From the NCBI GenBank assembly GCA_005881615.1, contig VBBR01000032.1:3183-67182 (forward strand): a stretch of DNA of 64,000 nucleotides, given 5' to 3'. Every line of letters starts with the position of its first letter. The first letter of the stretch is position 1. The position numbers were made by a program, and so were the translations under genes. Below are positions 2,360-42,918 of the stretch, one piece after another. The notes under the pieces were generated by a model that was given only the letters and a program-made list of their open reading frames with translations, was not told the origin of the DNA and ran no database searches. Source of the DNA: Candidatus Bathyarchaeota archaeon. Its GTDB lineage: Archaea; Thermoproteota; Bathyarchaeia; 40CM-2-53-6.

Positions 2360-4432
2360 ATGGTTATGATTTCTAAGTTAATGCGCGTACGACTGAATAC
2401 ACCAAGACTAAATCAACAACTGGTCACGAAGGCATTCTTGGTAATCGCAATCCTATCAGTCTCGACTCTCTCGGCCCTGCCCTCTGTGGCAGGTCAAACG
2501 ATCACGGGATCTCTGACCTTCCAAAGAGGTGAGAACAATGCCTTCACAGGTCTGATCGATGCAACCCACGGGTTTGCATACTTTGCGACCGATACTCAGC
2601 CAGGACAAATCGTGAAGGTTAGACTCTCCGACTTCACTAAAGTCAGCACTTTGGTGCTGAATCCACATGAGGATTTCCTGTCAGCTGGAGTCATTGACCC
2701 AGGCAACGACTTCGCATACTTCGGGACCTACAACCTTGGATCTCCAAATGCAAGCATAATCAAAGTCAGGCTATCCGACCTGACACGTGTAGGCGCGATT
2801 CAGATCAGTTCAAGAAACAATAGATTCTTCACGACCGCCGTGATCGACAGCGCGAACGGTTTCGCGTACTTCGGAAGTCTCCGAGGGGGCGTTATTGACA
2901 AGATCAGACTGTCAGACTTCACGCTGGTTGCTACGCTGAACCTTCCGAATGGCTTTGGGCTCTTCGGGTCAGCTATCGACACTACCGGGTTCGCATACTT
3001 CTCCACAGGCACCGGAACCGGTTACATCTTTAAGATCAGACTCTCGAACTTCACCTTGGCGAAGACGCTCACGGTGGGGGAACCGTTGGGATCAACCCCG
3101 CTAATCGACCCGACCACGGGGCTCTCTTACTGGCCAACCGACACTAACCCAGGGTCAATACTGCGAGTGAAAGTATCAGACCTCACCATCACCGGGAACA
3201 TGACTCTGAATGCGGGAGAATTATCCCCGAATTCCGGCGTGATCGATCCTTCCGAAGGTTTCGCCTATTTCGGAACACAAGGGACCCCATCGGAGATTGT
3301 TAAGATCAACATTGCAACCTTCAAACTGGCAAACACGTTGAAACTCGCGCCCTACGAGTCCCTGCTCTTCTTGAGCGCAGCAGGGGTGATTCAGAGTGAA
3401 ACGAGGGGTGGTAGCTTCGGCTACTTCGCGACCTACACCTCTCCGAGCTTCATTGTAAAGGTCAAACTGTCCGACATGAGCCGCGCTGGTACAATGACTC
3501 TCAAGCAGGGAGAGCAAGCCTTCGACAATTCGATAATCGACACGGCAGCAGGATTCGTATACTTCGGGAGCGATTCAGTGTTTGGGACGGGATCGGGTAC
3601 TGGCGCAATATCTAGAATAAGGACCTCCGATTTCACGGATGCTGGAACACTGCTGCTCAACCCTGGCGAAGGCCCCCTATGCTCGGCGGTCATAGATACG
3701 ACTAATGGGTTTGCCTACTTCGGAACGAGCACCTTTCCGGCAAAGATCATCAAAGTCAGACTCTCGGACTTCAGTCGCGTCGGGGTTCTCACGCTCGCCA
3801 CGGGCGAGGACCTTGCTTGTACGGGCGTAATTGATCCTCTGAACGGTTTCGCGTACTTTGCTACCCAAGACGACCCCGCAATTGTCCTCAAGGTCAGACT
3901 CTCCGATTTCTCTCTAGTTGGAACAGGCACCTTGGGCGCCTTCGAAGGTATCCCCATCAGCTCTATCATAGACGTTCAGCACGGTTTCGCCTATTTCGGA
4001 ACACTAAGTTTCCCTGGAGTCATTGATATGGTGAGACTCTCCGACCTTACGGAGGTAGCGTCGCTGACAATCGACCAGGATCAACCGGCCGCCGCCGCGA
4101 TTGACACTTTAGGAGGCTTTGCCTACTTCGGAACCTTTGAGGGCGTAGTGAAGCTTCGGCTGTCTGATTTCAGCGAGAACATGTCGATGACGCTGAATGG
4201 GCTTCAATCCTCCGTCGGCTCCGTCGTCCTCGACTTGTCTCTCGGTTTCGGCTACTTTGGAGGTGTCGGTTTCGTCGCGAAGATTCAGCTCTCGACCTTG
4301 AACGAGGTCGGCTCGACGATGACAGCGAGTCCGAACGATTTTCTCTTTAGTGCCAGCATCGATCCTGCGGCTGGAACAGCATACTTCGGCGTCCTATCGG
4401 ACCCAGGCAAAGTCTACAGAGTTAGCCTCTAA
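2360..4432 (+). CDS. secreted tandem-repeat protein (about 12 repeats of roughly 55 aa; beta-propeller-like)
   Basis: 690-aa ORF with an N-terminal hydrophobic signal/anchor (AFLVIAILSVSTLSALPSVAG). The unit 'IDxxxGFAYFGTxxxPGxIxKVRLSDFTxVxTLxL' recurs about every 55-57 residues along the whole length. The true start may be an internal Met (MRVRLNTPRL). Confidence 0.7.
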   Translation: MVMISKLMRVRLNTPRLNQQLVTKAFLVIAILSVSTLSALPSVAGQTITGSLTFQRGENNAFTGLIDATHGFAYFATDTQPGQIVKVRLSDFTKVSTLVLNPHEDFLSAGVIDPGNDFAYFGTYNLGSPNASIIKVRLSDLTRVGAIQISSRNNRFFTTAVIDSANGFAYFGSLRGGVIDKIRLSDFTLVATLNLPNGFGLFGSAIDTTGFAYFSTGTGTGYIFKIRLSNFTLAKTLTVGEPLGSTPLIDPTTGLSYWPTDTNPGSILRVKVSDLTITGNMTLNAGELSPNSGVIDPSEGFAYFGTQGTPSEIVKINIATFKLANTLKLAPYESLLFLSAAGVIQSETRGGSFGYFATYTSPSFIVKVKLSDMSRAGTMTLKQGEQAFDNSIIDTAAGFVYFGSDSVFGTGSGTGAISRIRTSDFTDAGTLLLNPGEGPLCSAVIDTTNGFAYFGTSTFPAKIIKVRLSDFSRVGVLTLATGEDLACTGVIDPLNGFAYFATQDDPAIVLKVRLSDFSLVGTGTLGAFEGIPISSIIDVQHGFAYFGTLSFPGVIDMVRLSDLTEVASLTIDQDQPAAAAIDTLGGFAYFGTFEGVVKLRLSDFSENMSMTLNGLQSSVGSVVLDLSLGFGYFGGVGFVAKIQLSTLNEVGSTMTASPNDFLFSASIDPAAGTAYFGVLSDPGKVYRVSL

Positions 4433-10158: not shown

Positions 10159-10274
10159 TGGTGGGCCCGCCCGGATTCGAACCGGGGACCGTCAGGTTTC
10201 CCGAACTTGGGGCTATGAGCCTGCCGCTCTTTCAGTTCTTCAACCTGAAGAAAACCTAGCTGAGCTACGGGCCC
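10159..10274 (-). tRNA. tRNA(CAU) (elongator Met or Ile2) with two introns (D-loop and canonical 37/38)
   Basis: Reverse complement: GGGCCCG-TA-GCTC-AGCTAGGT[TTTCTTCAGGTTGAAGAACTGAA]A-GAGC-G-GCAGG-CTCATA[GCCCCAAGTTCGGGAA]A-CCTGA-CGGTC-CCCGG-TTCGAAT-CCGGG-CGGGCCC-A-CCA. The 7-bp acceptor, T-arm, CAU anticodon and encoded CCA are all in place; both bracketed inserts can form hairpins (BHB-like). Confidence 0.7.
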
Positions 10275-17354: not shown

Positions 17355-17689
17355 TTTTTTTCATCCTAGGGAAGCGACTTCTATGAGGTAAAATGGTAAA
17401 AGCGTTCAACCGCAAAAACCTCTGAAAACAGGGGTTGTAAACCCAGAATCAGCAATTTGGTAGAAACAAGACTGTCAATGATGCGCGCTGAATTGACCTG
17501 TTTTTAACTAGCAATGCTAAACTGGGATTGGGGAAAACACAACTTCCTACCAATTTTCTGACACCGCATATAAACCAAAACCGTCCTGTGGCCCGCACAA
17601 CATCCCCGCCGAATATCTGTTGACAACATGCAACCTATTGCCTGAGCTAGAATTTCTCTAGCCCGTATACTACGAAACCATACCCTTAC

Positions 17690-18394
17690 GTGTCAAGAAC
17701 CCACTTGGAACGCGTCCCAAGTAAACCAGCTTTCAAGATAGAAATGTCATACAAGTCCATGAAGAATTGGGACCGAGAGCAGAGAGAGCCTTTGCTCTCG
17801 AAGGTCACCGATCGCATCCACCACCAAGAACCGCTCAAGGAGAAGATCTCACAGGTCGTCTACAAGCTCAAAGTACAACAGAATAGGCTTGAAGGAGCCA
17901 ACCTCAAGACACAGCAACACGACAAGTCACTGTTCGACAAGTGCGTCCAAGCCCAGATGTCCAAAGACACCATGCGCAGCGCAATGTACGCCAACGAGAT
18001 CGCGGAGATCCGGAAAATCGCCAAAGTTACACTCAGAAGCGAACTAGCACTCGAACAAGTCGTACTCCGACTCGAAACAATCCAGGAATTCGGCGACGTC
18101 GCAGCCATGATGGGCCCAGTCGCAGGAGTAGTACACCAGATCAAGAACCAGATCGCGGGAGTCATCCCACAAGTCGGCTACGAACTAGGCGAGATCTCCG
18201 ACACACTAAACAGCGTAGTCATGGAAGTTGGCGAAGCAACGGGACAAGGCTATGATCTGGAGGCATCAGGTCCAGAAGCCTCGAAGATCATTTCTGAAGC
18301 CAACACCATAGCTGAGACACGGATGCGTGAGAAGTTCCCGGAGTTACCCTCTCCAACCGCCACTGCAGAACACGAGATAGTGATTCCAAGGTAG
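17690..18394 (+). CDS. ESCRT-III / Snf7-family protein (CdvB paralog)
   Basis: Snf7-like helical core (...ANEIAEIRKIAKVTLRSELALEQVVLRLETIQEFGDVAAMMGPVAGVVHQIKNQIAGVIP...), closely related to the ORFs at 19196 and 22831. No C-terminal winged helix. Confidence 0.75.
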   Translation: MSRTHLERVPSKPAFKIEMSYKSMKNWDREQREPLLSKVTDRIHHQEPLKEKISQVVYKLKVQQNRLEGANLKTQQHDKSLFDKCVQAQMSKDTMRSAMYANEIAEIRKIAKVTLRSELALEQVVLRLETIQEFGDVAAMMGPVAGVVHQIKNQIAGVIPQVGYELGEISDTLNSVVMEVGEATGQGYDLEASGPEASKIISEANTIAETRMREKFPELPSPTATAEHEIVIPR

Positions 18395-18429: not shown

Positions 18430-19143
18430 ATGCCAATAACACTTGAACAAGTCCGACGATTCCTCGGCAGAACCCTCCAAGACCCCTACGGCAGAGCCTT
18501 CGGCAAAGTCGTAGGCATCTCCGCCAACCTCAGAGACGAGGTAACCGGAGTAGGAATAGAGGAAGGCAACGGAGAATTCCTCCAATGCCCCGGCGACAGA
18601 GTCACCATAACAGGTGACACTCTCGTCCTGGCACCGGCCTGGAAGGTGGAAGCAGAGGAGTTCCGGAAAGAATTCGACATCGTAACTAGACGCCTCCGAG
18701 CCCTTGACGAGCTGTTCAGTGTCGGCGACATCCAGAAGGACGTCTACGAGGATCTAAGGAAACAGCACGAGGACGCGATCAACGAGCTGAAAGGCAAGAG
18801 AAAGGAGATAATCGACACTCTGGCTCAACGAACCAGCGTTCTCAACACGCAGTTGCGACAGTTACAGACACACCTCGCAGGCAACAAGATGTTGCATGCG
18901 TCCGGCGAGTTCGACGATATGAATTACAAACAGGCTAGCGACGCTATCGACAGCGGTCTCGTCCGCGCGATGGCCGAGAAGAAGGACGTTGAGTCAATCT
19001 ACAGTTACCTACAGAAGCTCGACGCGGCCCAAGCGCCCCCCGCTGCACAACAGCCCCAACCCATAGCTCCAACCCCTCAACCAACCACAACAACCTCCCC
19101 CGCGAGAGACCCTGTTCTAGTACTTCACGTGAGGGAGACTTAG
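18430..19143 (+). CDS. cdvA: CdvA (PRC-barrel + coiled-coil cell-division protein)
   Basis: N-terminal PRC-barrel-like segment (LGRTLQDPYGRAFGKVVGI...GVGIEEGNGEFL...), a long coiled coil, and a Pro/Gln-rich tail. Located between two cdvB-type genes. Confidence 0.75.
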   Translation: MPITLEQVRRFLGRTLQDPYGRAFGKVVGISANLRDEVTGVGIEEGNGEFLQCPGDRVTITGDTLVLAPAWKVEAEEFRKEFDIVTRRLRALDELFSVGDIQKDVYEDLRKQHEDAINELKGKRKEIIDTLAQRTSVLNTQLRQLQTHLAGNKMLHASGEFDDMNYKQASDAIDSGLVRAMAEKKDVESIYSYLQKLDAAQAPPAAQQPQPIAPTPQPTTTTSPARDPVLVLHVRET

Positions 19144-19195
19144 GAGGATTCAAGGGCTGTTCCGAAAATTCGAGGAGAAAGTCCATCCTATTCCG

Positions 19196-19960
19196 TTGAA
19201 AGAGCGCATAGCGCAAGCTTTGTTCCGACTCGGATCACAGAAAGAAAAACTAGAGCACATGTCCGCTAGGCTCCAGCAACGCGACAAAGAGATGTTTCAG
19301 CGATGCATCGGCGCTCAGCTCTCCAAGGATCCCTCTCACGCAGCTCTCTACGCCAACGAGTGTGCTGAGATTCGGAAAATGGCTCATCTTACGCTCAGCA
19401 GTGAACTGGCCCTCGAACGTGTCATCCTCCGAATGCAGACGGTCGAAGAGTTCGGCGACATTATGGCCCAGATCGCACCGGTCATCGGAGTCGTACGCGA
19501 GACACGCGGTAGAATTGCAGGTGTCATTCCCGAAGTGGCCAACGAGCTTGGCGAGGTCAACAACATGCTAAGTGACATGAGCATGGAAACCGGCCAGGTC
19601 GGCGAAGACCAGGGCTTCGACATGAGCGCCTCAAGCGCCGAAGCACGCAAGGTTCTCGAAGAATCCAGCGCCATTGCATCCCAAGAAATGAAAGAACGAT
19701 TCCCGGAGCTGCCAATGCCTGAGACCCGCCAACCAGTTCGAGAAGCCGCAACACGCGCCCCAGAACAAAGAATCCCCATCGCCATAACCACAAACGGCTC
19801 AGAAGAAGCTCCCCTGGAAGACAGGCTCCTAAGCTACATCAAATCACACAACGGAGAACTCAGCCTCAACAACTGCTCCGCAGAGCTCCTGGTCCCGAGC
19901 GACGACATCAGGCGTTCCCTACAACGGCTCAAGGATGACGGAAAGATAGTCATGGACTAG
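19196..19960 (+). CDS. cdvB: CdvB (ESCRT-III with C-terminal winged-helix-like domain)
   Basis: Snf7 core plus a C-terminal ...LSYIKSHNGELSLNNCSAELLVPSDDIRRSLQRLKDDGKIVMD winged-helix-like module, as in CdvB proteins that bind CdvA. Confidence 0.8.
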   Translation: MKERIAQALFRLGSQKEKLEHMSARLQQRDKEMFQRCIGAQLSKDPSHAALYANECAEIRKMAHLTLSSELALERVILRMQTVEEFGDIMAQIAPVIGVVRETRGRIAGVIPEVANELGEVNNMLSDMSMETGQVGEDQGFDMSASSAEARKVLEESSAIASQEMKERFPELPMPETRQPVREAATRAPEQRIPIAITTNGSEEAPLEDRLLSYIKSHNGELSLNNCSAELLVPSDDIRRSLQRLKDDGKIVMD

Positions 19961-20255
19961 ACGGGAGATAAGTGCTCCCGTCCAAGCCCTTCAGTATCAC
20001 AAGAGGGGACAAGTAATCTCAGCATCCGAAGAACTGGAATCGCTTGCAGTAAAATACGCGAAAGAAGCTATCGAGCTGGAGAGAAAAGGCTCCAAACGGC
20101 TTGCCGCAACAAAATACCAGCGAGCCATCGAAGTCCTCCTCAAACTATGCTCATTATACCCAGCCGCGGTTCAAAACAAGGTCTACACGGAACACGTAGA
20201 AGCATACAAGAAACGAATCCAAGAACTCCAGTCAGACGAACCAATAACTCATTCT

Positions 20256-21161
20256 ATGGATTCGACTGAGACCCGTGAGTCCAAGACCATCAAGCTCGAT
20301 CAGTGGGTCCTGACGGAGAAACCGGACATCAGCTGGAGCGACATCGCCGACCTTGAGAAGCCGAAACGAGCGATCGAAGAATCAATAATCTTCCCCGTTC
20401 GAAGACCGGATCTCTTCCCTCTTGGCTGGCCTCGAGGAATACTCTTCTTCGGACCCCCAGGTTGCGGAAAAACCCTACTCGCTGCCGCCATTGCGAGCGA
20501 GATCAAGGGGATGTTCTTCTGTGCGGACGCCGCTTCCCTAATGTCAAAGTGGCTTGGAGAATCCGAACGAAACGTCTCCCAACTCTTCACAAAAGCAAGG
20601 GAAGTGTCTGAGAACGGGCAACCAGCCATCGTTTTCATCGACGAAATAGACTCGTTAATGGGCGTCCGGGGGGAAGAGGTCGGCGGAGAAGTCCGCGTCC
20701 GAAACCAGTTCCTCAAAGAGATGGATGGCATCCTCGACAAGAACAAGAAATTCCACGTCTACCTCATCGGTGCAACAAACAAGCCGTGGGTCCTGGACGA
20801 GCCGTTCATCCGACGCTTCCAGAAGAGAATCTACGTTCCACTACCAGACGTCAAAGCCCGCATGGACATGTTCCAGATCTATGCCCAGAATCTGAAGTTC
20901 CAGAACAACGTGGACTTCGCTGAGCTAGCGCGAAGGACTGAAGGCTACTCTGGAGGAGATATTCGCGATCTGTTCCAGTCCACCCAGATCAAGGTGGTCC
21001 GCGACTTCTTCCAGCGTGGTGCCGCTAACGATCTCAACGCTATTCCAGACCCGATTACTATGGAGGATTTCGAGACCATCATCGTGGGCCGACGGCCAAG
21101 CGTCTCGCAGAACATCATCAAACGATACTTCGACTGGGACGAATCGTTCAAGGCATCATAG
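20256..21161 (+). CDS. cdvC: CdvC / Vps4-type AAA+ ATPase (ATPase core from the first canonical ATG; MIT domain encoded in-frame upstream, 19959-20255)
   Basis: Walker A LFFGPPGCGKTLLAAAIA, Walker B IVFIDEIDSL, a SRH region and a Vps4 C-terminal helix. Upstream in the same frame with no ATG/GTG/TTG: ...ISASEELESLAVKYAKEAIELERKGSKRLAATKYQRAIEVLLKLCSLYPAAVQNKVYTEHVEAYKKRIQEL, a clear MIT domain. Confidence 0.85.
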   Translation: MDSTETRESKTIKLDQWVLTEKPDISWSDIADLEKPKRAIEESIIFPVRRPDLFPLGWPRGILFFGPPGCGKTLLAAAIASEIKGMFFCADAASLMSKWLGESERNVSQLFTKAREVSENGQPAIVFIDEIDSLMGVRGEEVGGEVRVRNQFLKEMDGILDKNKKFHVYLIGATNKPWVLDEPFIRRFQKRIYVPLPDVKARMDMFQIYAQNLKFQNNVDFAELARRTEGYSGGDIRDLFQSTQIKVVRDFFQRGAANDLNAIPDPITMEDFETIIVGRRPSVSQNIIKRYFDWDESFKAS

Positions 21162-21659: not shown

Positions 21660-22127
21660 TTGGAAAAGCCATCCTGGACCCCAATTGTCCTATCCGGCGC
21701 CATCCCACGAGAAGCCACGGACCTACTCGCAATTCTAGTGATTGGCATAGTAGCCCTCCAGGCGTCTCTTGCCGCAATAGGTCCAACAATCCCCGAGTCA
21801 CGACTCTGGCTCTCTCTCCTAGTTGTTCCACCGACATGTGCCCTAGCGTCTGTATCTACTACGACAAGACGGACGAAGGAGGAATTAGCCCTCTTCGCCT
21901 ACGGAGGCTCCGGCTGGCAGATTCTCCTACGCTACTTCATCAGAGGAGCGATCATTGCTCTGCTCGCATTCTCTCCAGTCCTGCTTCAAGAATTCCTCAC
22001 AACCACTCCGATGCTCGAACTAGCTACAACAGTGATCATTCTGTTGTTCGCAGGAGGTCTGTTCTATTCGCTACCCAGTCTTCGCCGAATACGATCCTCA
22101 TCGTTTGTTGAGCACTACAAGAGTTAG
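21660..22127 (+). CDS. small 4-TM membrane protein with FtsX/MacB-permease-like C-terminal signature
   Basis: RRTKEELALFAYGGSGWQILLRYFIRGAIIALLA resembles the FtsX-domain consensus (R.eiailkAlGas...il.qfl.E.l.l.l). Lacks the large extracytoplasmic domain of full-length FtsX/MacB. Sits 6 nt upstream of the ABC ATPase. Confidence 0.5.
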   Translation: MEKPSWTPIVLSGAIPREATDLLAILVIGIVALQASLAAIGPTIPESRLWLSLLVVPPTCALASVSTTTRRTKEELALFAYGGSGWQILLRYFIRGAIIALLAFSPVLLQEFLTTTPMLELATTVIILLFAGGLFYSLPSLRRIRSSSFVEHYKS

Positions 22128-22132
22128 CAAAC

Positions 22133-22828
22133 ATGCCATCTGTGATCGAAACAAGGTCAGTGGTCGTCGAATACCCTTCAGTCAAAGGGGTTCTGCGGCT
22201 CTACGAGCAAGGCGTTTCCTTGAAAGTGGATCAGGGAGACTTCCTCGCCGTCCTCGGCGGGTCTGGCTGGGGAAAATCAACACTCGTCAACGTAGTCTTG
22301 GGACTGGAGAAACCCATTCATGGGTCGGTCAGCTTTCGCGACCACGACGTCACACGGGAATCATTCGTAAAACGGTGTGCCTTGGTTAAGACAGCCGCCG
22401 TGTTTCAGCGTCCAACCGCGCTCCCGCAGATGACAGTTTCACAGAACCTGCACCTAGCCCTCTCGCTAGCGGGGGTCCCGAGAAAGGATCGAGATGAAAG
22501 GATCAAAGAAGCCCTCGCATTTTTTGGATTAGACAAGATCGAACGATCATACCCTGACGGGCTCAGCGCTGGCCAGCGAAGGCGAATCGATCTCGCAAGA
22601 GCTTTGGCCGTCAAACCCGAACTACTGGTGATCGACGAGCCGACGGGCGACTTAGATGGGTCCGCTACAAACCTGCTAATCCCTCTTCTAAGGGGACTAA
22701 ACCGGAACCAGGGAACAACAATTTTCATGACCACAGCACTGCCTCGTCAAGCGTCGCAAGCAAAGCACCAGGTGCATCTCAGACCGCCTTTGTACCTCAC
22801 TCCGGAAAACAGGATGATCGGAGACTAA
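22133..22828 (+). CDS. ABC transporter ATP-binding protein (FtsE/MacB/LolD-like)
   Basis: Walker A GGSGWGKST, signature LSAGQRRR, Walker B LLVIDEPTGDLD. Confidence 0.8.
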   Translation: MPSVIETRSVVVEYPSVKGVLRLYEQGVSLKVDQGDFLAVLGGSGWGKSTLVNVVLGLEKPIHGSVSFRDHDVTRESFVKRCALVKTAAVFQRPTALPQMTVSQNLHLALSLAGVPRKDRDERIKEALAFFGLDKIERSYPDGLSAGQRRRIDLARALAVKPELLVIDEPTGDLDGSATNLLIPLLRGLNRNQGTTIFMTTALPRQASQAKHQVHLRPPLYLTPENRMIGD

Positions 22829-22830
22829 CA

Positions 22831-23439
22831 ATGTTCCGCGACAATCCCTCATTAACCGACAGAATCCGGGAAGCGATCAAGCCGACACCGATGAAACAGC
22901 GGATCCAGTTCGCTTCCCACAAACTCCGTCTACAAACTACAAGGCTGGAGCGAAGCATTACCCAGATGGAATCACGAGACCAGACACTTCGAGATAAGTG
23001 CACCAAAGCACTGGAGGCGCGAGATACTCAAACCGCGACCGTTTTCGCAAACGAATGCGTCCAAATTCGAAAACTCATCAAGACATCCCTCCGAAGCCAG
23101 ATCTGCCTCGAACAAGCACTACTCCGCCTCGAGACGGTGGAACAGTTCGGCGACCTGGTCCACAGCATGGGCTCAGTCAAAGGACTCCTCGGCGCAGTAA
23201 GAGGCGAGCTAGAAGGCAAACTTCCCGAAATTTCAACAGGTATCGGCGATGTCGAAGACTCGCTAGAGAATCTCACGATGGAAATTGGGGAAGCAGTTGA
23301 CTCGGATGGGATGTCCATCCCGGTCAATGATGAATCCGCTCACATCTTGAAGGAGGCGGATCTTATGGCCGAGCAGAAGATGAAAGAGAAATTCCCTGAA
23401 ATTCCTCAGATAGCGAATCCGGCTCATCGAGTGAGGTAG
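22831..23439 (+). CDS. ESCRT-III / Snf7-family protein (third CdvB paralog, no winged helix)
   Basis: ...TVFANECVQIRKLIKTSLRSQICLEQALLRLETVEQFGDLVHSMGSVKGLLGAVRGELEGKLPEI... is colinear with the ORFs at 17690 and 19196. Confidence 0.75.
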   Translation: MFRDNPSLTDRIREAIKPTPMKQRIQFASHKLRLQTTRLERSITQMESRDQTLRDKCTKALEARDTQTATVFANECVQIRKLIKTSLRSQICLEQALLRLETVEQFGDLVHSMGSVKGLLGAVRGELEGKLPEISTGIGDVEDSLENLTMEIGEAVDSDGMSIPVNDESAHILKEADLMAEQKMKEKFPEIPQIANPAHRVR

Positions 23440-23557
23440 AATCTATCTGCTCTCTCCTGAGCTGGAGACGAAAGCTCTCCTCGGACGAAGTGTCAACGAC
23501 ATCTACGGCAGACTGCTAGGACGGGTAATCGGCATCGAGCGCAACCCCTTCGGAGAG

Positions 23558-24064
23558 ATGGAAGGAGTCCAGATAGAAGCGACAGGCGGAATTATTCTCA
23601 CAGCCAAAGCCAGGCAAATGGCCCTCACCCCGAAAACAATCACGATATCCCCGGAGTGGAAGCTTGAGTCCGAGGACATCATCTCCGAACTGACACTGTT
23701 GAGGAAGAGGATTGGTGCCCTGGAATCGTTGAAAGATTCGAGGGAGATTGACGGAGAAATCTATTCGGAGCTTCTCGAGTCGCAGAAGGCCGGCTACCTG
23801 GACAAGGTGAAACTGGCGAGCGCCCTGGTCGGCTCAATGCGATCTAGACTAGCCGAAATCACTGGACAAATCACGAGCCTGACAAGATATCTTGTCAATG
23901 CGAAGCTTGATCACAAGAGTGGGGAGCTTGACGAGGATTCTCTGAAACTCGCGCAGGGCTCTATCGAGCCGAGTCTTCGGCCTTTGATCGCGGAGAGAAA
24001 CGATCTTTCCCTGTCGATCAAAGTTGTCGAGCAGGTCCTGCCATCAAAGGTCAGCATTAACTAG
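23558..24064 (+). CDS. CdvA-like paralog (PRC-barrel + coiled coil); coding frame actually opens at 23435 with no canonical start before the ATG at 23558
   Basis: The in-frame upstream segment SPELETKALLGRSVNDIYGRLLGRVIGIERNPFGEMEGVQIE aligns with the CdvA N-terminus (MPITLEQVRRFLGRTLQDPYGRAFGKVVGISANLRDEVTGVGIE). The downstream part aligns with the CdvA PRC/coiled-coil region (ISPEWKLESEDI / LAPAWKVEAEEF). Confidence 0.6.
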   Translation: MEGVQIEATGGIILTAKARQMALTPKTITISPEWKLESEDIISELTLLRKRIGALESLKDSREIDGEIYSELLESQKAGYLDKVKLASALVGSMRSRLAEITGQITSLTRYLVNAKLDHKSGELDEDSLKLAQGSIEPSLRPLIAERNDLSLSIKVVEQVLPSKVSIN

Positions 24065-27680: not shown

Positions 27681-28889
27681 CTATAATTCGATATCTTTCG
27701 ACAAAGGCGTGATGTTTTCCGAAGGAGAACCAACAACCACAATGTCCTCTATCCTGATACCACCCCACTTGGGCTCGTAGAGCCCTGGCTCGATCGTCAC
27801 CACGGATCCTTTTCTCAGGTTATCCTTGCCGTACAGAGAGAGATACGGCCTTTCTCCAATAGTCAGTCCCACTCCATGACCGAGGCCGTGCATGAACCCA
27901 TGAGTCCGCGCTTCTTTGTTCCCCTTGACCAGTTGTCTCGCCGTTGGGTATCCTTTCCTCTCAAAGATCTTGCAGGCATTTGCCATCATGTCCTTGCAGG
28001 GAACCTGCTCCTTCACCATGTCGAGGGCTGATGTCTGGACCTCGAGAACGGCGTCATACATTTCCTTAATCTTCTTCGGCGCGGAACCGAACAGGTAGGT
28101 CCGAGTCAAGTCATGCCAGTAACCATCCGGCTCAGAGGGAAATATGTCGAAGACAATAGGCTCACCAGCTCGGACAATATCTTCGTCTTCACCTCTATAG
28201 TGAGGGTCACTCGATCTCCTGCCTGGCGCGAATATCGTGTCCTCCGGCGCGACCAAGTTCTGCTCGGAAAGCGACCTTCCGATAACCTTCTTGACGGTTC
28301 CAACACTCAAGGGCGTTGACTTGTAAGATACCCTCTTTCCATTGACCTTTGCTCCTCGTAGAAACCGGAGCGTGTCTTCCACGACTCGGATGGTCTTCTT
28401 TCCGAGAACTCTCAGCCTTTCGACCTCCCAACGATCCTTCGTCTCACGTGCAGCTTCGATGATCGTAGGCGACTTTTCCCCTGTAATCTTCACGCCCTTT
28501 CTGCGAAGAGCATCGATCATGTGCAGTGTATTGGACACGTCATTTCTTCCAGCCAGAATTATGGACCCGTGAAGTCCCTCGTCCTTCATGATTTTCTGAT
28601 AGAATCGGATCCTGGCCTCATCCCGGTCATACTTGCTAGCGATCCGCTCGTATCCATAGTCCGAGTAGGTCTTGATGTTGCGAACCTTTCCTTGGCGCGC
28701 GCTGCCCACGTCGATGTTGCTTACTATGAGCGTTGGGTCATGTGATCTTCGTTTCAGAAATATTCCCCCTCTCGGCAGAGAGGTTCCTGCCGCGTACCGA
28801 AGGTCTGGGTTTCCGACCGTTGAATCTCCGAAGACTATGATTGAATTGAGATTTCTTTTTTCCATCTCCACGTCGAGATCTTTGATCAA
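27681..28889 (-). CDS. M24-family metallopeptidase (Xaa-Pro aminopeptidase / prolidase-like)
   Basis: HGLGHGVGLTIGERP and EPGLYEPKWGGIRIEDIVVV are typical metal-ligand regions of the pita-bread fold. Confidence 0.8.
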   Translation of the reverse strand: MIKDLDVEMEKRNLNSIIVFGDSTVGNPDLRYAAGTSLPRGGIFLKRRSHDPTLIVSNIDVGSARQGKVRNIKTYSDYGYERIASKYDRDEARIRFYQKIMKDEGLHGSIILAGRNDVSNTLHMIDALRRKGVKITGEKSPTIIEAARETKDRWEVERLRVLGKKTIRVVEDTLRFLRGAKVNGKRVSYKSTPLSVGTVKKVIGRSLSEQNLVAPEDTIFAPGRRSSDPHYRGEDEDIVRAGEPIVFDIFPSEPDGYWHDLTRTYLFGSAPKKIKEMYDAVLEVQTSALDMVKEQVPCKDMMANACKIFERKGYPTARQLVKGNKEARTHGFMHGLGHGVGLTIGERPYLSLYGKDNLRKGSVVTIEPGLYEPKWGGIRIEDIVVVGSPSENITPLSKDIEL

Positions 28890-28978
28890 GAAGATGCCCT
28901 AGCAACAGGGGGCGAGAATAGTATATTATGATTGGGAACGATCAGTGCGATAAATTGCTCGATAGATTGATGAAGGAT

Positions 28979-29260: not shown

Positions 29261-29381
29261 GGGAGTCCACTACTATTCATGGCTCATCTACTCTTCTTAT
29301 AGAATAAACTCTAAACAAAAACAAGCTTCCAACCAGCAGGCGGAAATCGGTTAAATTGGACGACAAAGATAGGAACTGCTC

Positions 29382-30410
29382 ATGCTGGCTTGTCTAATCA
29401 ACGGACCTGGGCTTGCGGAGGTCAAAGAGGTCCCAGTTCCCAGACTCCAGCCGGGCGAAGTCTTGATCAAACTCGCAGCAGCCGGAATATGCGGGACTGA
29501 CGTCGAAAAAGTCCATGGTGCATATGGACTTGGCGGAATCCTCGGCCACGAAGTCAGCGGGACCATCGCCAGCGTAGGTGAGGGAGTGACCGATCTGAGA
29601 AAATCGGACAGAGTCATCGCGCATCATCACGCGCCATGCTACAATTGCGAATACTGCCGATACGGGGACCACACCATGTGCGATCTCTTCAAGAAAACAA
29701 ACTTTGATCCCTGCGGACTTGCAGAGTACTTCCGAGTTCCCGAGGCAAACGTCACTCGAGGAGCGGTAGTACGCTTGCCCAAAGAGACAAGCTTCGAAGA
29801 AGGATCCATGATAGAACCGACCGCCTGTTGCGTGAGGGCCCTCGGCAAGGCGGGAGTTAACCCTGGAGACAAAGTCCTCGTCGTAGGCCTAGGCCCGACT
29901 GGCCTGACACAAATACAATTACTCAGGAAAATGGGCGCGGCAAAAATAATCGGCGTCGATATTCTGCCCCATCGACTCGAAATGGCACAAAAGCTGGGGG
30001 CCGACGAGTCGATTGATCCTTCCTCAAAAGATGTCCCTAAACAAGTTACGAAATCAACCCGAGTTGGTGTTGATTTGGCAATCGTATCGACTGGGAATCA
30101 GAAGGCAATACAGCCCGCGCTTGCCTCGGTTAGAAAAGGGGGCAAACTCCTTCTGTTTGGCGCCCCCGCTCAAGGCGCGACCATTGATCTCGATGTCGGC
30201 GCGTTGTTCAGCCGGCAGATCTCAATTGTGACGAGCTATTCTTGTGTAGAATCGGATATTCATCGCGCTCTCGGATTTCTGGCAAAAAGAGAGATAGACC
30301 TTCGGTCTATGGTTACTGACCGATTTGCCTTACGAGACGCTCCAAAAGCGCTTGAGCATGCTCGAACTTCGAGAACTGCCGTCAAGACCGTGATCTTGTC
30401 CCAAGCGTAA
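29382..30410 (+). CDS. zinc-dependent medium-chain alcohol dehydrogenase (threonine/sorbitol dehydrogenase-like)
   Basis: GICGTDVEKVHG...GHEVSGTIASVGEGV (catalytic zinc), C-x2-C-x2-C-x7-C structural-zinc motif (CYNCEYCRYGDHTMC), GLGPTGL Rossmann motif. Confidence 0.8.
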   Translation: MLACLINGPGLAEVKEVPVPRLQPGEVLIKLAAAGICGTDVEKVHGAYGLGGILGHEVSGTIASVGEGVTDLRKSDRVIAHHHAPCYNCEYCRYGDHTMCDLFKKTNFDPCGLAEYFRVPEANVTRGAVVRLPKETSFEEGSMIEPTACCVRALGKAGVNPGDKVLVVGLGPTGLTQIQLLRKMGAAKIIGVDILPHRLEMAQKLGADESIDPSSKDVPKQVTKSTRVGVDLAIVSTGNQKAIQPALASVRKGGKLLLFGAPAQGATIDLDVGALFSRQISIVTSYSCVESDIHRALGFLAKREIDLRSMVTDRFALRDAPKALEHARTSRTAVKTVILSQA

Positions 30411-33862: not shown

Positions 33863-34738
33863 CTAGACTTCCCGGAATTTTCCAGGTGGATTTTCCAGCC
33901 ATATTTTTGAAGAAACGACTCTAGAACTCACCTTCTCAGTTAGCACTGTGCGTGCTATGTGTCGATTTGCGGGGTCAGCTGCTAGGTTGCAGCCGAGAGC
34001 GAAGCACCAGCATACGCCGATTAGGAGAAGGAAGATGTAAGCGAGGGTGCTGAAGATTGGCCGGGTTAGGGCAGTGTAGAGGAGCGAGAAGCCCCCTGAT
34101 GCACCTATCACCATGGAGAGAATCGTGGTGTGGAAGGGACCCACATCAATGCTCCGAAGCCTCAGCCCTCCAAAGTATGGAAGCGCAAGGGCAACCAGCG
34201 GGAGCATTAGTGATGAGGTCATCGTGAGTGTCACAAAATCCTGAGTTATCAGGCTGACAATGTCTGTTGTCCGGGCGAGAGGCGAGATCAAGGGGAGGTC
34301 TTTGTGATTGGCTTCGTAGGTTGCAAAAGGTACTACAACCGCGAGGATGAATCCGAAGTACATGATCTGTCTACGAAGTTTCAGTCGCAAACCGCGGGAG
34401 GCTTGGACCGTTGAGAGTTCTGAGGTCTTGGATCCGATTACGTGAGTTCCCTTTGTGATGAAGAGATAGAGCTTAATCGCCTTCGTTGATATGACCCCGC
34501 CAAAGAAGTACATGTACGTGAACCCTATTGGAATGCCAATAAGAGAGATTACGAGGGTCAACGTCGCGCTCAACGTTAATGTGAGGAGTCCTAACTGCGC
34601 ATTTCTTGGCAGTATTCTATTCGCCGACTCGAGGATGGGAAGAACTGTAGATGATCCGATGAAAAAGAGAGCGAAAGTGGCAGCGCAGCAGACGAGTAAG
34701 TTTCGTCGGTTGTGTGAGCTTCCAGTGCCGCCTGACAA
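33863..34738 (-). CDS. integral membrane protein (about 8 TM helices)
   Basis: 291-aa ORF dominated by hydrophobic helices; no specific family recognised. Confidence 0.55.
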   Translation of the reverse strand: MSGGTGSSHNRRNLLVCCAATFALFFIGSSTVLPILESANRILPRNAQLGLLTLTLSATLTLVISLIGIPIGFTYMYFFGGVISTKAIKLYLFITKGTHVIGSKTSELSTVQASRGLRLKLRRQIMYFGFILAVVVPFATYEANHKDLPLISPLARTTDIVSLITQDFVTLTMTSSLMLPLVALALPYFGGLRLRSIDVGPFHTTILSMVIGASGGFSLLYTALTRPIFSTLAYIFLLLIGVCWCFALGCNLAADPANRHIARTVLTEKVSSRVVSSKIWLENPPGKFREV

Positions 34739-34827
34739 CGTTGCCCGAGTTGAGAATCCGGTTATTGAACAATATTTAGGAAGGCTGGTCCTCTAGCTCC
34801 ATCTAGCTAGTTAATGGAGAACTTCTC

Positions 34828-35604
34828 TTGCCTGAAGAAATGGATCTGATTCTAAAGATCGTTAGGACGTATCGTCCGACCGGCCGTGTGTCGATCCGAC
34901 GGATCGGGAGTTTCGTCAATGATGTATTCCTGGTTAAGGTGGACAACGAGAAACTGGTGGCCAAAAGGTACACGAACTGGGTGTCTCTCAAGTGGGTGAC
35001 GTTGAGTCTCTTTGGCCTGGGTTCGGTTCACTTCTCGATATCCGGGAAGAGACGGATGGAGGCTGAGTATGCCTTCAACGACCTTTTGTCACGTCGGGGG
35101 ATACCAGTGCCCTCGATTCTTGGGGCTGACCAGAAATCTAGGACGATACTGTTCTCCTTCGTTTCCGGCGACCAATTATCCAGTCTTCTTCCCAAGTTGG
35201 CCGGGGTTGCTCAAATAGGACAAAGGGAGCGAGAAGCAGCGTACCAGGCTGGAAAACTGATGGCGGGTGCACATCAGCTCGAAGCTTCGCTAGGCGATAC
35301 GAAGCCAGAGAACTTTCTCGTTGAAAAGAAAGGCGAGGTAACCCTCGTCGACCTTGAGCAAGCTCGCCACAGAGGGGATTATGCTTGGGATTTGGCGGAG
35401 TTCCTATTCTATTCAGGTCATTACTGGTTCTCGTTCAACAAAACTCTCGAGGGATACGTTGATTCCTTCATCAAGGGCTACAAGGAGCAAGGAAGTGCGA
35501 GCACGATAAGAGCTGCCGCCTCTCCACGATACGTTAGAGTCTTCTCCGTATGGACTCCCCCGAATATCCTGCATAACATGAGAAAGAAACTAACGGAGAT
35601 CTAA
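34828..35604 (+). CDS. protein-kinase-like fold protein (Bud32/RIO/Kdo-kinase-like)
   Basis: GDTKPENFLVEKKGEVTLVDLEQAR resembles a catalytic-loop (D-x-K-x-x-N) and DFG-equivalent (DLE) arrangement of small atypical kinases. Confidence 0.45.
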   Translation: MPEEMDLILKIVRTYRPTGRVSIRRIGSFVNDVFLVKVDNEKLVAKRYTNWVSLKWVTLSLFGLGSVHFSISGKRRMEAEYAFNDLLSRRGIPVPSILGADQKSRTILFSFVSGDQLSSLLPKLAGVAQIGQREREAAYQAGKLMAGAHQLEASLGDTKPENFLVEKKGEVTLVDLEQARHRGDYAWDLAEFLFYSGHYWFSFNKTLEGYVDSFIKGYKEQGSASTIRAAASPRYVRVFSVWTPPNILHNMRKKLTEI

Positions 35605-41460: not shown

Positions 41461-42861
41461 CTAGTTCTCCACCGTCGTAACTGGACGGGACTTTGCTTGA
41501 GAAGCTTGAAGCTTCCGCAACAATGCCTGGGCCGCGATCGTCACTGGATCCCAGACTGGAGCTAGTGGCGGGGAGTAGCAAGTCTCTACCTGCTCGAATT
41601 CCTCTACGGTCAGTCCTAAGTGTCCGGCCATTGATGCGAAGTTGGCTCTCAAGGTGCCTCCCTCCTCACCTACAAGCTGAGCCCCTAACAACCGGCCATC
41701 CTTCAGGTCTGCCAGAAGCTTGACAGTAAGATCTTTGCCTCCAGGGTAGTATGGAAGCCGAGTAGACCCGGTCACCCTAACAGATATTGAGTGTATTCCC
41801 AATTTTTCCAAAAGTGCTGTCGTGGGTCCGAAGGAAGCTATCTCTAGGCCAAACAATTTGACAGTCGTCACGCCCGTCGAGCCGGGATACTTTGCACTGC
41901 CTCCCGCCGCATTGATCCCAGCGACCAAAGCTTGTCTGACCGCTGTCGTGGAAAGCTGAAAGAAGACATGTCGACGGGTTATTAGATCGTAGGTTTCTAT
42001 GCAGTCGCCCGCGGCATATACGTTCGGTGCAGAGGTCGCCATTCGCTCGTCTGTTTTGATTCCTCCTGATTCTCCGAGAATAATTCTGGCTTGTTTGGCC
42101 AACTCGGTGTTTGGCTTCACTCTGACTGCTACGATAACAGCATCGACTGGATGCTCTTTTCCGGGTAGGCGAACTCCAGAGACCCGACCGTTCCGGCCTA
42201 TTATTGCCTCTAGGGTCGATTGAAGATGGTACTCAACGCCATGTTCCTCAGCGCGTGTTCTGACGATCGAAGCCATGTCGGGGTCGAGTATTGCAGGGAG
42301 AATTTCTGGGACAATTTCTGCCTCGAGAACAGCTATGCCCTGGTGAAGCAGTGCTTCGGCCATTTCAGAACCTGTAAGTCCTGCTCCCACGATTGCTACT
42401 CGTTTAGCGTTGTTTTCAGCGAGATGATTTGTCAGTCTCTCAATGTCACTCAACGTCCGGACGGTGAATACTCCCTTGAGGTTGGATCCGGGGACTGATA
42501 CTGTGCTGGGCCGCGCCCCCGTCGTGACAATTAGCGTATCATACTCGATAGTCTCGGTTGAGTCGTCATTAGTCCTGATGGCTTCTAGGCTTCGCTTCTC
42601 CGTGTTGATGCTTGTGGCTTTCCAGCCGAGGCGGAGGTCTATCCGGTTCATCTGCTCATAGAAGGCTTCGTCATGTCCTATCAATGCTTCAAGGTTTGGC
42701 ACGACATGGCTGAAGGCATAGGGGAGGCCGCACCTGGAGTATTCGGGCAATTCCTCATCGCCTAGAAGAACGATCTGTGCAGTTCTGTCTGTTTTTCGTG
42801 CGTGAAACGCGGCAGTTGTACCAGAGACTCCGCAACCGATGATCACAATACGCCGGGGCAT
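41461..42861 (-). CDS. FAD-dependent pyridine nucleotide-disulfide oxidoreductase (NADH oxidase / CoA-disulfide reductase family)
   Basis: RIVIIGCGVSGTTAA (FAD GxGxxG), single redox Cys in YSRCGLPY, second dinucleotide-binding motif IVGAGLTG. Confidence 0.8.
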   Translation of the reverse strand: MPRRIVIIGCGVSGTTAAFHARKTDRTAQIVLLGDEELPEYSRCGLPYAFSHVVPNLEALIGHDEAFYEQMNRIDLRLGWKATSINTEKRSLEAIRTNDDSTETIEYDTLIVTTGARPSTVSVPGSNLKGVFTVRTLSDIERLTNHLAENNAKRVAIVGAGLTGSEMAEALLHQGIAVLEAEIVPEILPAILDPDMASIVRTRAEEHGVEYHLQSTLEAIIGRNGRVSGVRLPGKEHPVDAVIVAVRVKPNTELAKQARIILGESGGIKTDERMATSAPNVYAAGDCIETYDLITRRHVFFQLSTTAVRQALVAGINAAGGSAKYPGSTGVTTVKLFGLEIASFGPTTALLEKLGIHSISVRVTGSTRLPYYPGGKDLTVKLLADLKDGRLLGAQLVGEEGGTLRANFASMAGHLGLTVEEFEQVETCYSPPLAPVWDPVTIAAQALLRKLQASQAKSRPVTTVEN

Positions 42862-42918
42862 GGCGCTTCATGATTTCCTTCGTCCGATAACGGTTTCCTT
42901 AGCGCGGGGGAAGCCGGT

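Follow-up and report, generated by a model that had tools for sequence, protein, structure and literature searches.

A probable near-cognate AUC start codon for the cdvC/Vps4 gene of a Bathyarchaeota division gene cluster

In Escherichia coli, infC (encoding IF3) and pcnB are translated from AUU start codons, and the weak codon sets a low expression that depends on a fidelity factor; prfB (RF2) carries a programmed +1 frameshift at a stop codon. On archaeal mRNAs led by a Shine-Dalgarno (SD) sequence, the complex of the 30S subunit with aIF1, aIF1A, aIF2 and Met-tRNAi tests triplets in the P site, with aIF1 disfavouring codons other than AUG (PMC6237735 and work cited there). Initiation at a near-cognate codon inserts methionine. 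In Sulfolobus solfataricus aIF1 is reported to discriminate against non-canonical starts (as cited in PMC6237735), and in Haloferax around 30% of the harringtonine-mapped alternative start sites are near-cognate (PMC7261190), reports that together make non-AUG initiation plausible in archaea. The Haloferax near-cognate sites are mostly alternative or putative, and their authors set them aside to limit false positives (PMC7261190). Here we analyse the cdvC/Vps4 gene on a 64,000-nt stretch of DNA from a Candidatus Bathyarchaeota archaeon (contig VBBR01000032.1 of assembly GCA_005881615.1, positions 3,183 to 67,182; hereafter the window), which has no ATG, GTG or TTG ahead of its MIT domain and is probably translated from an ATC codon. 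The cdv genes and their signals lie on the + strand of the window, and ATH stands for ATC, ATT or ATA.

The gene resembles Sulfolobus CdvC/Vps4 (structures 2v6y, 2w2u and 4lcb) in its domain order (MIT, AAA, lid, Vps4_C), in an N-terminus that aligns serine 2 with serine 2 and in its cdvA-cdvB-cdvC neighbourhood, but the Sulfolobus gene has a Met1 codon where the window gene has ATC, and the window carries the additional paralogues cdvB2, cdvB3 and cdvA2. With infC and pcnB it would share a conserved AUH near-cognate start behind an SD; it differs from them in being archaeal, with aIF1, aIF1A and aIF2 replacing IF3, in having no known autoregulatory logic and in that several division genes of one cluster are affected. 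Like the Haloferax volcanii sites (PMC7261190), the proposed start is one base away from AUG; the difference is that here an essential-type gene would have no other start to use, and that the codon is conserved across a clade. Like prfB, the locus has a stop codon, an open +1 frame and an SD-like element and structured RNA nearby, but no frame relation and no slippery site is conserved at the junction, and in one relative a stop intervenes.

The cdvC frame is open from 19950, a TAG in the same frame occupying 19947-49, and runs to a stop at 21159-61. No in-frame ATG, GTG or TTG occurs between 19950 and 20255, the first being ATG 20256 (20256..20258). A check on the sequence found all the positions given in a preliminary description of this locus to be correct, namely those of this TAG and this ATG and of the end of cdvB (GAC TAG, 19955-60), AGA 19959-61, ATA 19968 and ATC 20016. 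The three canonical codons make up 5.15% of in-frame codons under the window's codon usage, so that a run of 102 codons free of them has P ~0.005. Within this run, 20016-20270 encodes a MIT domain, with a Pfam MIT match of E = 6e-6 and 26.7 bits, just below the gathering cut-off of 30 bits, and phmmer matches of E = 2e-10 to 1.5e-9 to the MIT structures of Sulfolobus CdvC (2v6y, 2w2u, 4lcb). The clear MIT domain in a frame devoid of canonical starts, as first described, is thus seen both in the sequence and in these searches. Compared with relatives, the segment has a ratio of non-synonymous to synonymous substitution rates (dN/dS) of 0.01-0.07 at dS from 0.5 to above 2, that is, strong purifying selection, so that it is translated and the ATH state is old; the earlier claim that the MIT-coding segment must be expressed is backed by the same values. 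Recurrence of the start-less frame in many independent assemblies shows that it reflects neither chance nor error.

For the start itself, 80 genome loci of relatives were fetched (numbered loci such as L001) and the codon directly before the conserved SASEELE was read. The window's own clade comprises the window, L001-L016 and L020 (18 sequences; 81-99% protein identity), and the start column holds ATC in 11 of them, ATT in two, ATA in one, GTT in two and GTG in two, hence ATH in 14 out of 18. In twelve of these 14, the frame is free of canonical codons from the upstream stop to a point 50-165 codons downstream; the other two are L014, with an in-frame TTG 5 codons before the column, and L009, with a GTG 11 codons after it. 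One GTT locus (L011) also lacks a canonical codon upstream of the MIT domain. Most of the distant Bathyarchaeia carry ATG, TTG or GTG in the same column, with an SD (GGAGG, AGGTGA or GGTG) 6-8 nt upstream. As a side observation, in L069 (a distant lineage; near position 3001) the column reads ACG, 4 nt after AGGTGA, and no canonical codon occurs until 28 codons downstream.

Conservation begins at this column. Residue identity is 0.99 over the 10 columns downstream of the start codon versus 0.52 upstream, and the DNA alignment is nearly invariant at non-synonymous positions downstream. Upstream, within the window's clade, only a GGAGG/GAGGGG/GGGGG block at a fixed distance is kept, the rest diverging with insertions and deletions. 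In the window this block is the SD-like GAGGGG at 20003..20008, 7 nt upstream of ATC 20016 (as an 8-mer, AGAGGGGA versus the consensus GGAGGUGA), and its register of 6 nt after the 8-mer recurs at cdvB, also where that gene starts with a canonical GTG (L010-L012). Residue 2 (S) of the window protein aligns with residue 2 (S) of Sulfolobus CdvC (2v6y, 2w2u), which places ATC at the Met1 position of the characterised protein. The NCBI entry TMI17086.1 is 100% identical over 381 aa and begins MSASEELE, so the existing annotation already puts the cdvC start at ATC 20016.

The codon at 20016..20018 is therefore singled out by its orthologous column, SD spacing, Sulfolobus Met1 alignment and GenBank start: no canonical start exists upstream, conservation sets in at an orthologous codon and a ribosome-binding site stands at functional spacing. 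We consider it probable, with good though not full confidence, that translation of cdvC starts at the near-cognate AUC 20016-18 behind the SD-like GAGGGG and yields the full 381-aa product with an intact MIT domain. The predicted N-terminus is M-SASEELESLAVKYA..., and the N-terminal peptide expected from AUC is probably M/SASEELESLAVK. Non-canonical initiation had been among the options of the preliminary description, with ATA 19968 and ATC 20016 as candidates; SD, orthologous column and Met1 alignment speak for ATC 20016 and leave ATA 19968 without comparable backing.

Several points weigh against this reading. GAGGGG matches the consensus SD in 6 out of 8 positions, a consensus that was not derived from the host's own 16S 3′ end. 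ATC, ATT and ATA are synonymous isoleucine codons, and the codon pattern alone cannot tell a start from an internal isoleucine. Wherever it has been measured, AUC initiates translation poorly. In L010 and L011 the column is GTT, with two mismatches to AUG, and starts in these genomes must lie elsewhere, at a TTG at codon -5 in L010 and possibly at a CTG at -1 in L011. Any attenuating or regulatory role of the weak cdvC codon is, moreover, pure inference.

Among the alternatives, the one that survives best is a variant of the AUC start rather than its opposite. Ribosomes ending cdvB at TAG 19958-60 would remain on the mRNA, open the hairpin at 19960-82 and begin again at AUC 20016, and a relaxed codon requirement during reinitiation would make a canonical start unnecessary. 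It would fit that the three proposed non-canonical starts each lie downstream of a cdv stop (13 nt for cdvB, 7 nt for cdvA2, 55 nt for cdvC), that a conserved hairpin directly follows the cdvB stop and that no AT-rich promoter-like element is found between cdvB and cdvC. Yet 55 nt containing two stems make a long spacer for coupling, and the strong, conserved SD favours direct 30S recruitment, so we regard termination-reinitiation as unlikely, if still the most serious of the rivals. An internal promoter giving a leaderless cdvC transcript was considered separately and rejected: no AT-rich TATA-like element occurs 25-35 nt upstream of 20016, in a promoter scan that used a bacterial consensus only, and the stretch is unconserved.

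The hairpin invoked here (19960..19982) is predicted in both the minimum free energy and the centroid structure as GACGGGAG - AUAAGUG - CUCCCGUC, with 19960-67 pairing 19975-82. A second predicted stem (19987..20008; again in both structures) pairs CCCUUC 19987-92 with the cdvC SD GAGGGG 20003-08 and could occlude it. The region 19955-20030 (76 nt) folds at -22.4 kcal/mol (z = -2.4), with four of 200 shuffled sequences folding as well. When the sequence of each relative was folded separately, the first hairpin was found to be formed from different sequences, such as GGACGAG/CTCGTCC in L013, L014 and L016 and GGGCG.GGC/GCC.CGCCC in L009, which suggests selection on the hairpin. The SD-pairing stem is predicted in the window and L001-L008 only. 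RNAalifold on the MAFFT-aligned intergenic hairpin region predicted no pairs, the divergent spacers being misaligned, and an Rfam search with the cdvB-cdvC intergenic region returned no family match. On balance these models argue weakly for the two stems, and the SD-pairing element in particular may or may not act in the cell.

Initiation at another non-canonical codon upstream of 20016 (ATA 19968, AAG 20001 or AGG 20004) would add a short N-terminal extension, e.g. EISAPVQALQYHK. The frame is indeed open from 19950 and ATA 19968 is near-cognate, but this codon sits in the loop of the hairpin and no SD stands at a proper distance from it, and L001 and L007, whose frame is that of the window, read ACA instead. 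The upstream peptide is unconserved and varies in length and frame, and solved Sulfolobus CdvC begins at the position aligned with 20016; such a start is highly improbable.

More doubtful still is a MIT-less CdvC of 301 aa (MDSTETR...) made from ATG 20256, with the upstream MIT stretch a relic. ATG 20256 is the first canonical start, and callers limited to ATG, GTG and TTG do report 301 aa. The constraint on the MIT segment (dN/dS, above) speaks against a relic, no SD precedes ATG 20256, and Vps4/CdvC is established to need its MIT domain to bind the MIM2 motif of ESCRT-III (PDB 2w2u). ATG 20256 is an internal methionine in a variable linker and is not conserved as a start: in relatives the first canonical codon falls at +11, +50, +55, +57, +60, +76, +80 or +165 codons. 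Prodigal-type callers turn such internal codons into truncated products of 283-345 aa.

The headline of the preliminary description was a +1 shift at the cdvB TAG producing a CdvB-CdvC fusion with no separate start for cdvC. The open cdvC frame across the cdvB stop and the hairpin that follows the stop invite this idea, but the frame relation is not kept among relatives. Counted from the cdvC start column, the cdvB stop lies at -58 in the window, L001, L006-L008, L013 and L014, at -46 in L011 and at -49 in L012, all of which call for a +1 shift; at -59 or -50 in L002-L005, L016 and L010, calling for a -1 shift; and at -54 in L009 and L020, where it shares the frame of cdvC. A single-base insertion or deletion directly after the cdvB stop accounts for the change between +1 and -1, in genomes whose CdvC proteins are 97-99% identical. 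In L014 an in-frame TAA at -24 separates the cdvB stop from the cdvC start. The cdvB stop itself may be TAG, TAA or TGA, no slippery or shift site is conserved, and the linker peptide is unconserved within a divergent intergenic sequence. The orthologous junctions keep no fixed register, and the +1 register of cdvB and cdvC is, judged from these alignments, a coincidence of the window genome; the fusion is barely credible. Recoding of TAG, as by pyrrolysine, was likewise ruled out, TAG being the commonest stop among 51 long open reading frames (ORFs) of the window (TAG 33, TAA 12, TGA 6).

Equally hard to credit is a 1-nt indel or substitution introduced by sequencing or assembly, the remaining option raised earlier, since although two metagenomic variants (L161 and L162, below) show a single-base route to a canonical start, ATH with no canonical start upstream is seen in at least 13 contigs of metagenome-assembled genomes (MAGs) from several independent projects and assemblers and in many metagenome contigs, gene calling gives 283-345-aa truncations for dozens of metagenome protein clusters, and synonymous divergence of 0.5 to >2 shows that the loci are not copies of one error.

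Initiation at AUC 20016-18 could proceed as follows. The cdvC gene would probably be co-transcribed with cdvB and its translation would start de novo, the SD-like GAGGGG pairing with the 16S rRNA 3′ end and setting AUC in the P site, where initiator Met-tRNA would read it with a third-position mismatch. The weak codon, possibly together with the SD-occluding stem, may keep CdvC low relative to CdvB from one transcript; alternatively, it may make CdvC synthesis sensitive to initiation-fidelity factors such as aIF1. Reinitiation after cdvB termination might contribute as a further route.

The gene upstream of cdvC appears to use the same device. The cdvB gene (19157..19960; ESCRT-III/Snf7-like with a C-terminal winged helix) has a frame that opens at 19133 and a stop TAG at 19958-60, and its conserved N-terminus LFRKFEEKVHPIPLKERI is encoded upstream of the first canonical codon, TTG 19196. 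An SD-like GGAGG (19143..19147) overlaps the cdvA stop TAG 19141-43 and precedes CTG 19157 by 9 nt; the block is kept in the window's clade, with the same spacing to GTG in L010-L012. The column of CTG 19157 reads CTG in 13 sequences of the clade and GTG in L010-L012, L015 has an ATG two codons upstream, and the cdvB3 paralogue starts MFRD at the aligned position. TTG 19196 is CTG, CTC or CTA in relatives, which marks it as an internal leucine. It is likely, on this comparative evidence, that cdvB starts at the near-cognate CTG 19157 and not at the annotated TTG 19196, from which GenBank gives a 254-aa form only.

A similar case is found in cdvA2 (23447..24064), the second cdvA-like gene, which has a Pfam match to the CdvA coiled-coil. 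In a frame open from 23435, ATG 23558 is the first canonical codon, and the N-terminal part that aligns with CdvA1 residues 7-40 lies upstream of it. The SD-like GAGGU (23433..23437) overlaps the cdvB3 stop TAG 23437-39, and GAGGTAG is kept in relatives, 9 nt upstream of the start. The column of CTG 23447 holds ATG in L002, L004, L009 and L020, TTG in L001, L003, L006, L007 and L011, GTG in L014 and CTG also in L010, L013 and L100, and the segment upstream of ATG 23558 has a pN/pS of 0.05-0.08 against close relatives. A start at the near-cognate CTG 23447 rather than at the annotated ATG 23558 is again likely. In GenBank the gene is TMI17091.1, a 168-aa 'hypothetical' protein starting at ATG 23558, a form that loses half of the N-terminal barrel. 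When the 10 window ORFs whose prefixes without a start are longest were scanned with Pfam, only the cdvA2 domain reached upstream of the first canonical start; the other scanned prefix ORFs, including those for an NTP transferase, a 2-hydroxyacid dehydrogenase, the thermosome, a NuoL-like protein, SnoaL and DeoC, were consistent with canonical starts. Thus cdvB (CUG 19157) and cdvA2 (CUG 23447) appear to share with cdvC a near-cognate codon behind an SD-like block.

Across Bathyarchaeia, the cdvB-type gene directly upstream of cdvC has no canonical codon before its conserved N-terminal helix in about 38 of 76 loci (N-termini read by eye). In several lineages outside the window's clade, GGAGGGA or TGAGGGA is followed after 5-6 nt by ATC, ATT or ATA, in a gene at about 2000-2200 of each locus (among them L018, L023, L024, L042, L048, L049, L052, L057, L058, L060-L065, L067-L069, L072, L075, L076 and L078-L080), and the first canonical codon there is often 30-127 codons downstream. 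Near-cognate starts are therefore a recurrent and apparently ancient trait of Bathyarchaeia cdv genes. The Lrp/AsnC regulator gene downstream of cdvC, which starts at GTG 21175 in the window, was also seen with CTG at its start column in L013 (near 2770) and L020 (near 4150), with no canonical codon for 22-35 codons.

Whether such starts extend genome-wide was approached through 80 metagenome loci around the thermosome gene, in which the start columns of ~25 gene families were anchored on the window's own start. ATG columns are stable for 41461-42867 (14/14), the ABC ATPase gene at 22133 (9/9) and 29373-30410 (4/4), and TTG columns for 27681-28898 (4/4), 21660-22127 (7/7) and 33863-34792 (TTG 8/9, ATG 1/9). 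Most families keep stable canonical starts, so the genome shows no general laxity in its choice of start codons. Scans of the window for a strong SD followed by a long ORF were too noisy for a genome-wide rate, SD-like motifs being common inside genes. We also observed that most window genes have no SD and that strong SDs concentrate at genes directly following another gene (cdvB, cdvC, cdvA2).

One exception is a kinase-like gene (Pfam APH; 34828-35604, TTG 34828 in the window), the first in its unit. In a sister clade of ~75% identity (L095-L098, L105, L110-L114, L116, L118, L120-L122 and L124) its start column is TTT in 11 of the 16 loci, TTA in three, ATT in one and GTT in one. A strong SD (e.g. 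GGAGGTGA) lies 6 nt upstream and an in-frame stop 2-3 codons upstream, and the next canonical codon comes 22-76 codons downstream: at 35 or beyond, past the Gly-rich loop, in 10 of the 16, and at 56 or 76, also past the VAKRY lysine, in nine. The N-terminal segment has a pN/pS of 0.04-0.3, in line with purifying selection. Reading the TTT cases as an alternative-frame GTG with a +1 slip at CTT-T was rejected as a general explanation, five of the 16 loci having no alternative-frame GTG. As the gene is first in its unit, its non-canonical codons indicate that coupling to an upstream gene is not required for such starts, which bears on the reinitiation scenario discussed above. They also hint that, in a bolder version of the regulatory reading offered below, the lineage may have a generally relaxed, SD-dominated start rule (N-U-N).

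The CDS (20016..21161; 381 aa) encodes MIT (~20019-20243), followed by AAA (E = 5e-36), the AAA lid (AAA_lid_3, E = 1e-8) and Vps4_C (21.4 bits against a cut-off of 21.3), so that an N-terminal MIT, a single AAA+ cassette with lid and Vps4 C-terminal helix, and linkage to cdvA and cdvB are all present, as expected of CdvC/Vps4. Its nearest proteins are from soil Bathyarchaeia MAGs, e.g. 'BA_n' isolates and 'Crenarchaeota archaeon 13_1_40CM...'. JGI, ENA and Logan calls of near-identical sequences are 283-345 aa long and start at internal codons, which shows that the canonical start is missing from many independent contigs. Two metagenome contigs offer variants: L161 (1-45) has GAGGG instead of GAGGGG, bringing an upstream GTG into frame for a 388-aa call, and in L162 (285-305) the GTA found at codon -1 of the window is replaced by GTG, for a 382-aa call. 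Single-base changes can thus create canonical cdvC starts.

The cluster on the + strand of the window runs cdvB2, cdvA, cdvB, cdvC, Lrp/AsnC regulator, membrane protein, ABC ATPase, cdvB3 and cdvA2. The first copy of cdvA (18430..19143), which opens the cdvA-cdvB-cdvC run, has a Pfam CdvA coiled-coil match of E = 2.8e-20 and a canonical ATG, found at the start position in every relative examined. The paralogue cdvB3 (22831-23439) has a Pfam Snf7 match and the stop TAG 23437-39 mentioned above. For the paralogue cdvB2 (17744-18394), the first gene of the cluster, the probable start is ATG 17744 (MSYKSMKNWD...) rather than GTG 17690, the first canonical codon: relatives carry ATG at the column of 17744, and further upstream their sequences contain stops or are not conserved. 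Upstream of the cluster lies a non-coding block at 17630-17665 (GCAACCTATTGCCTGAGCTAGAATTTCTCTAGCC), a possible promoter or operator, which is partly conserved (…CTAGAAT…) down to the more distant L008, L014 and L020. Elsewhere in the window, a tRNA on the - strand (10162-10274) with anticodon CAU and a G1:C72 end is not an initiator but of an elongator Met or Ile2 type. It is enlarged by two insertions, one of 29 nt in the D region and one of 18 nt after the anticodon, and is detected by Rfam and missed by ARAGORN.

Non-canonical initiation of cdvC at ATC is, from comparative sequence data, well supported; it is already reflected in GenBank, and near-cognate initiation is a known phenomenon. 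The wider pattern of conserved weak starts across Bathyarchaeia cdv genes seems unreported, a limited literature search having found no description of non-canonical starts in Bathyarchaeia or in cdv genes, and it merits a systematic census. Gene callers limited to ATG, GTG and TTG strip the MIT domain from CdvC and the N-termini from CdvB and CdvA2 (the latter two in GenBank for the window contig), and truncated calls of this kind distort domain-based surveys of archaeal ESCRT systems.

It is possible, and we offer it tentatively, that weak near-cognate starts (AUH, CUG) are a conserved, selected regulatory feature of ESCRT-III/Vps4 division genes throughout Bathyarchaeia. If true, synthesis of CdvB, CdvC and CdvA2 would be held low and would depend on aIF1-type factors, coupling the supply of division proteins to the state of the translation apparatus. 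A weak start kept across deep divergence in several division genes suggests that this uncultured archaeal class tunes ESCRT-III/Vps4 stoichiometry at the level of translation, and the Bathyarchaeia cdv starts offer natural substrates on which the fidelity of start-codon choice in archaeal, eukaryote-like initiation can be studied.

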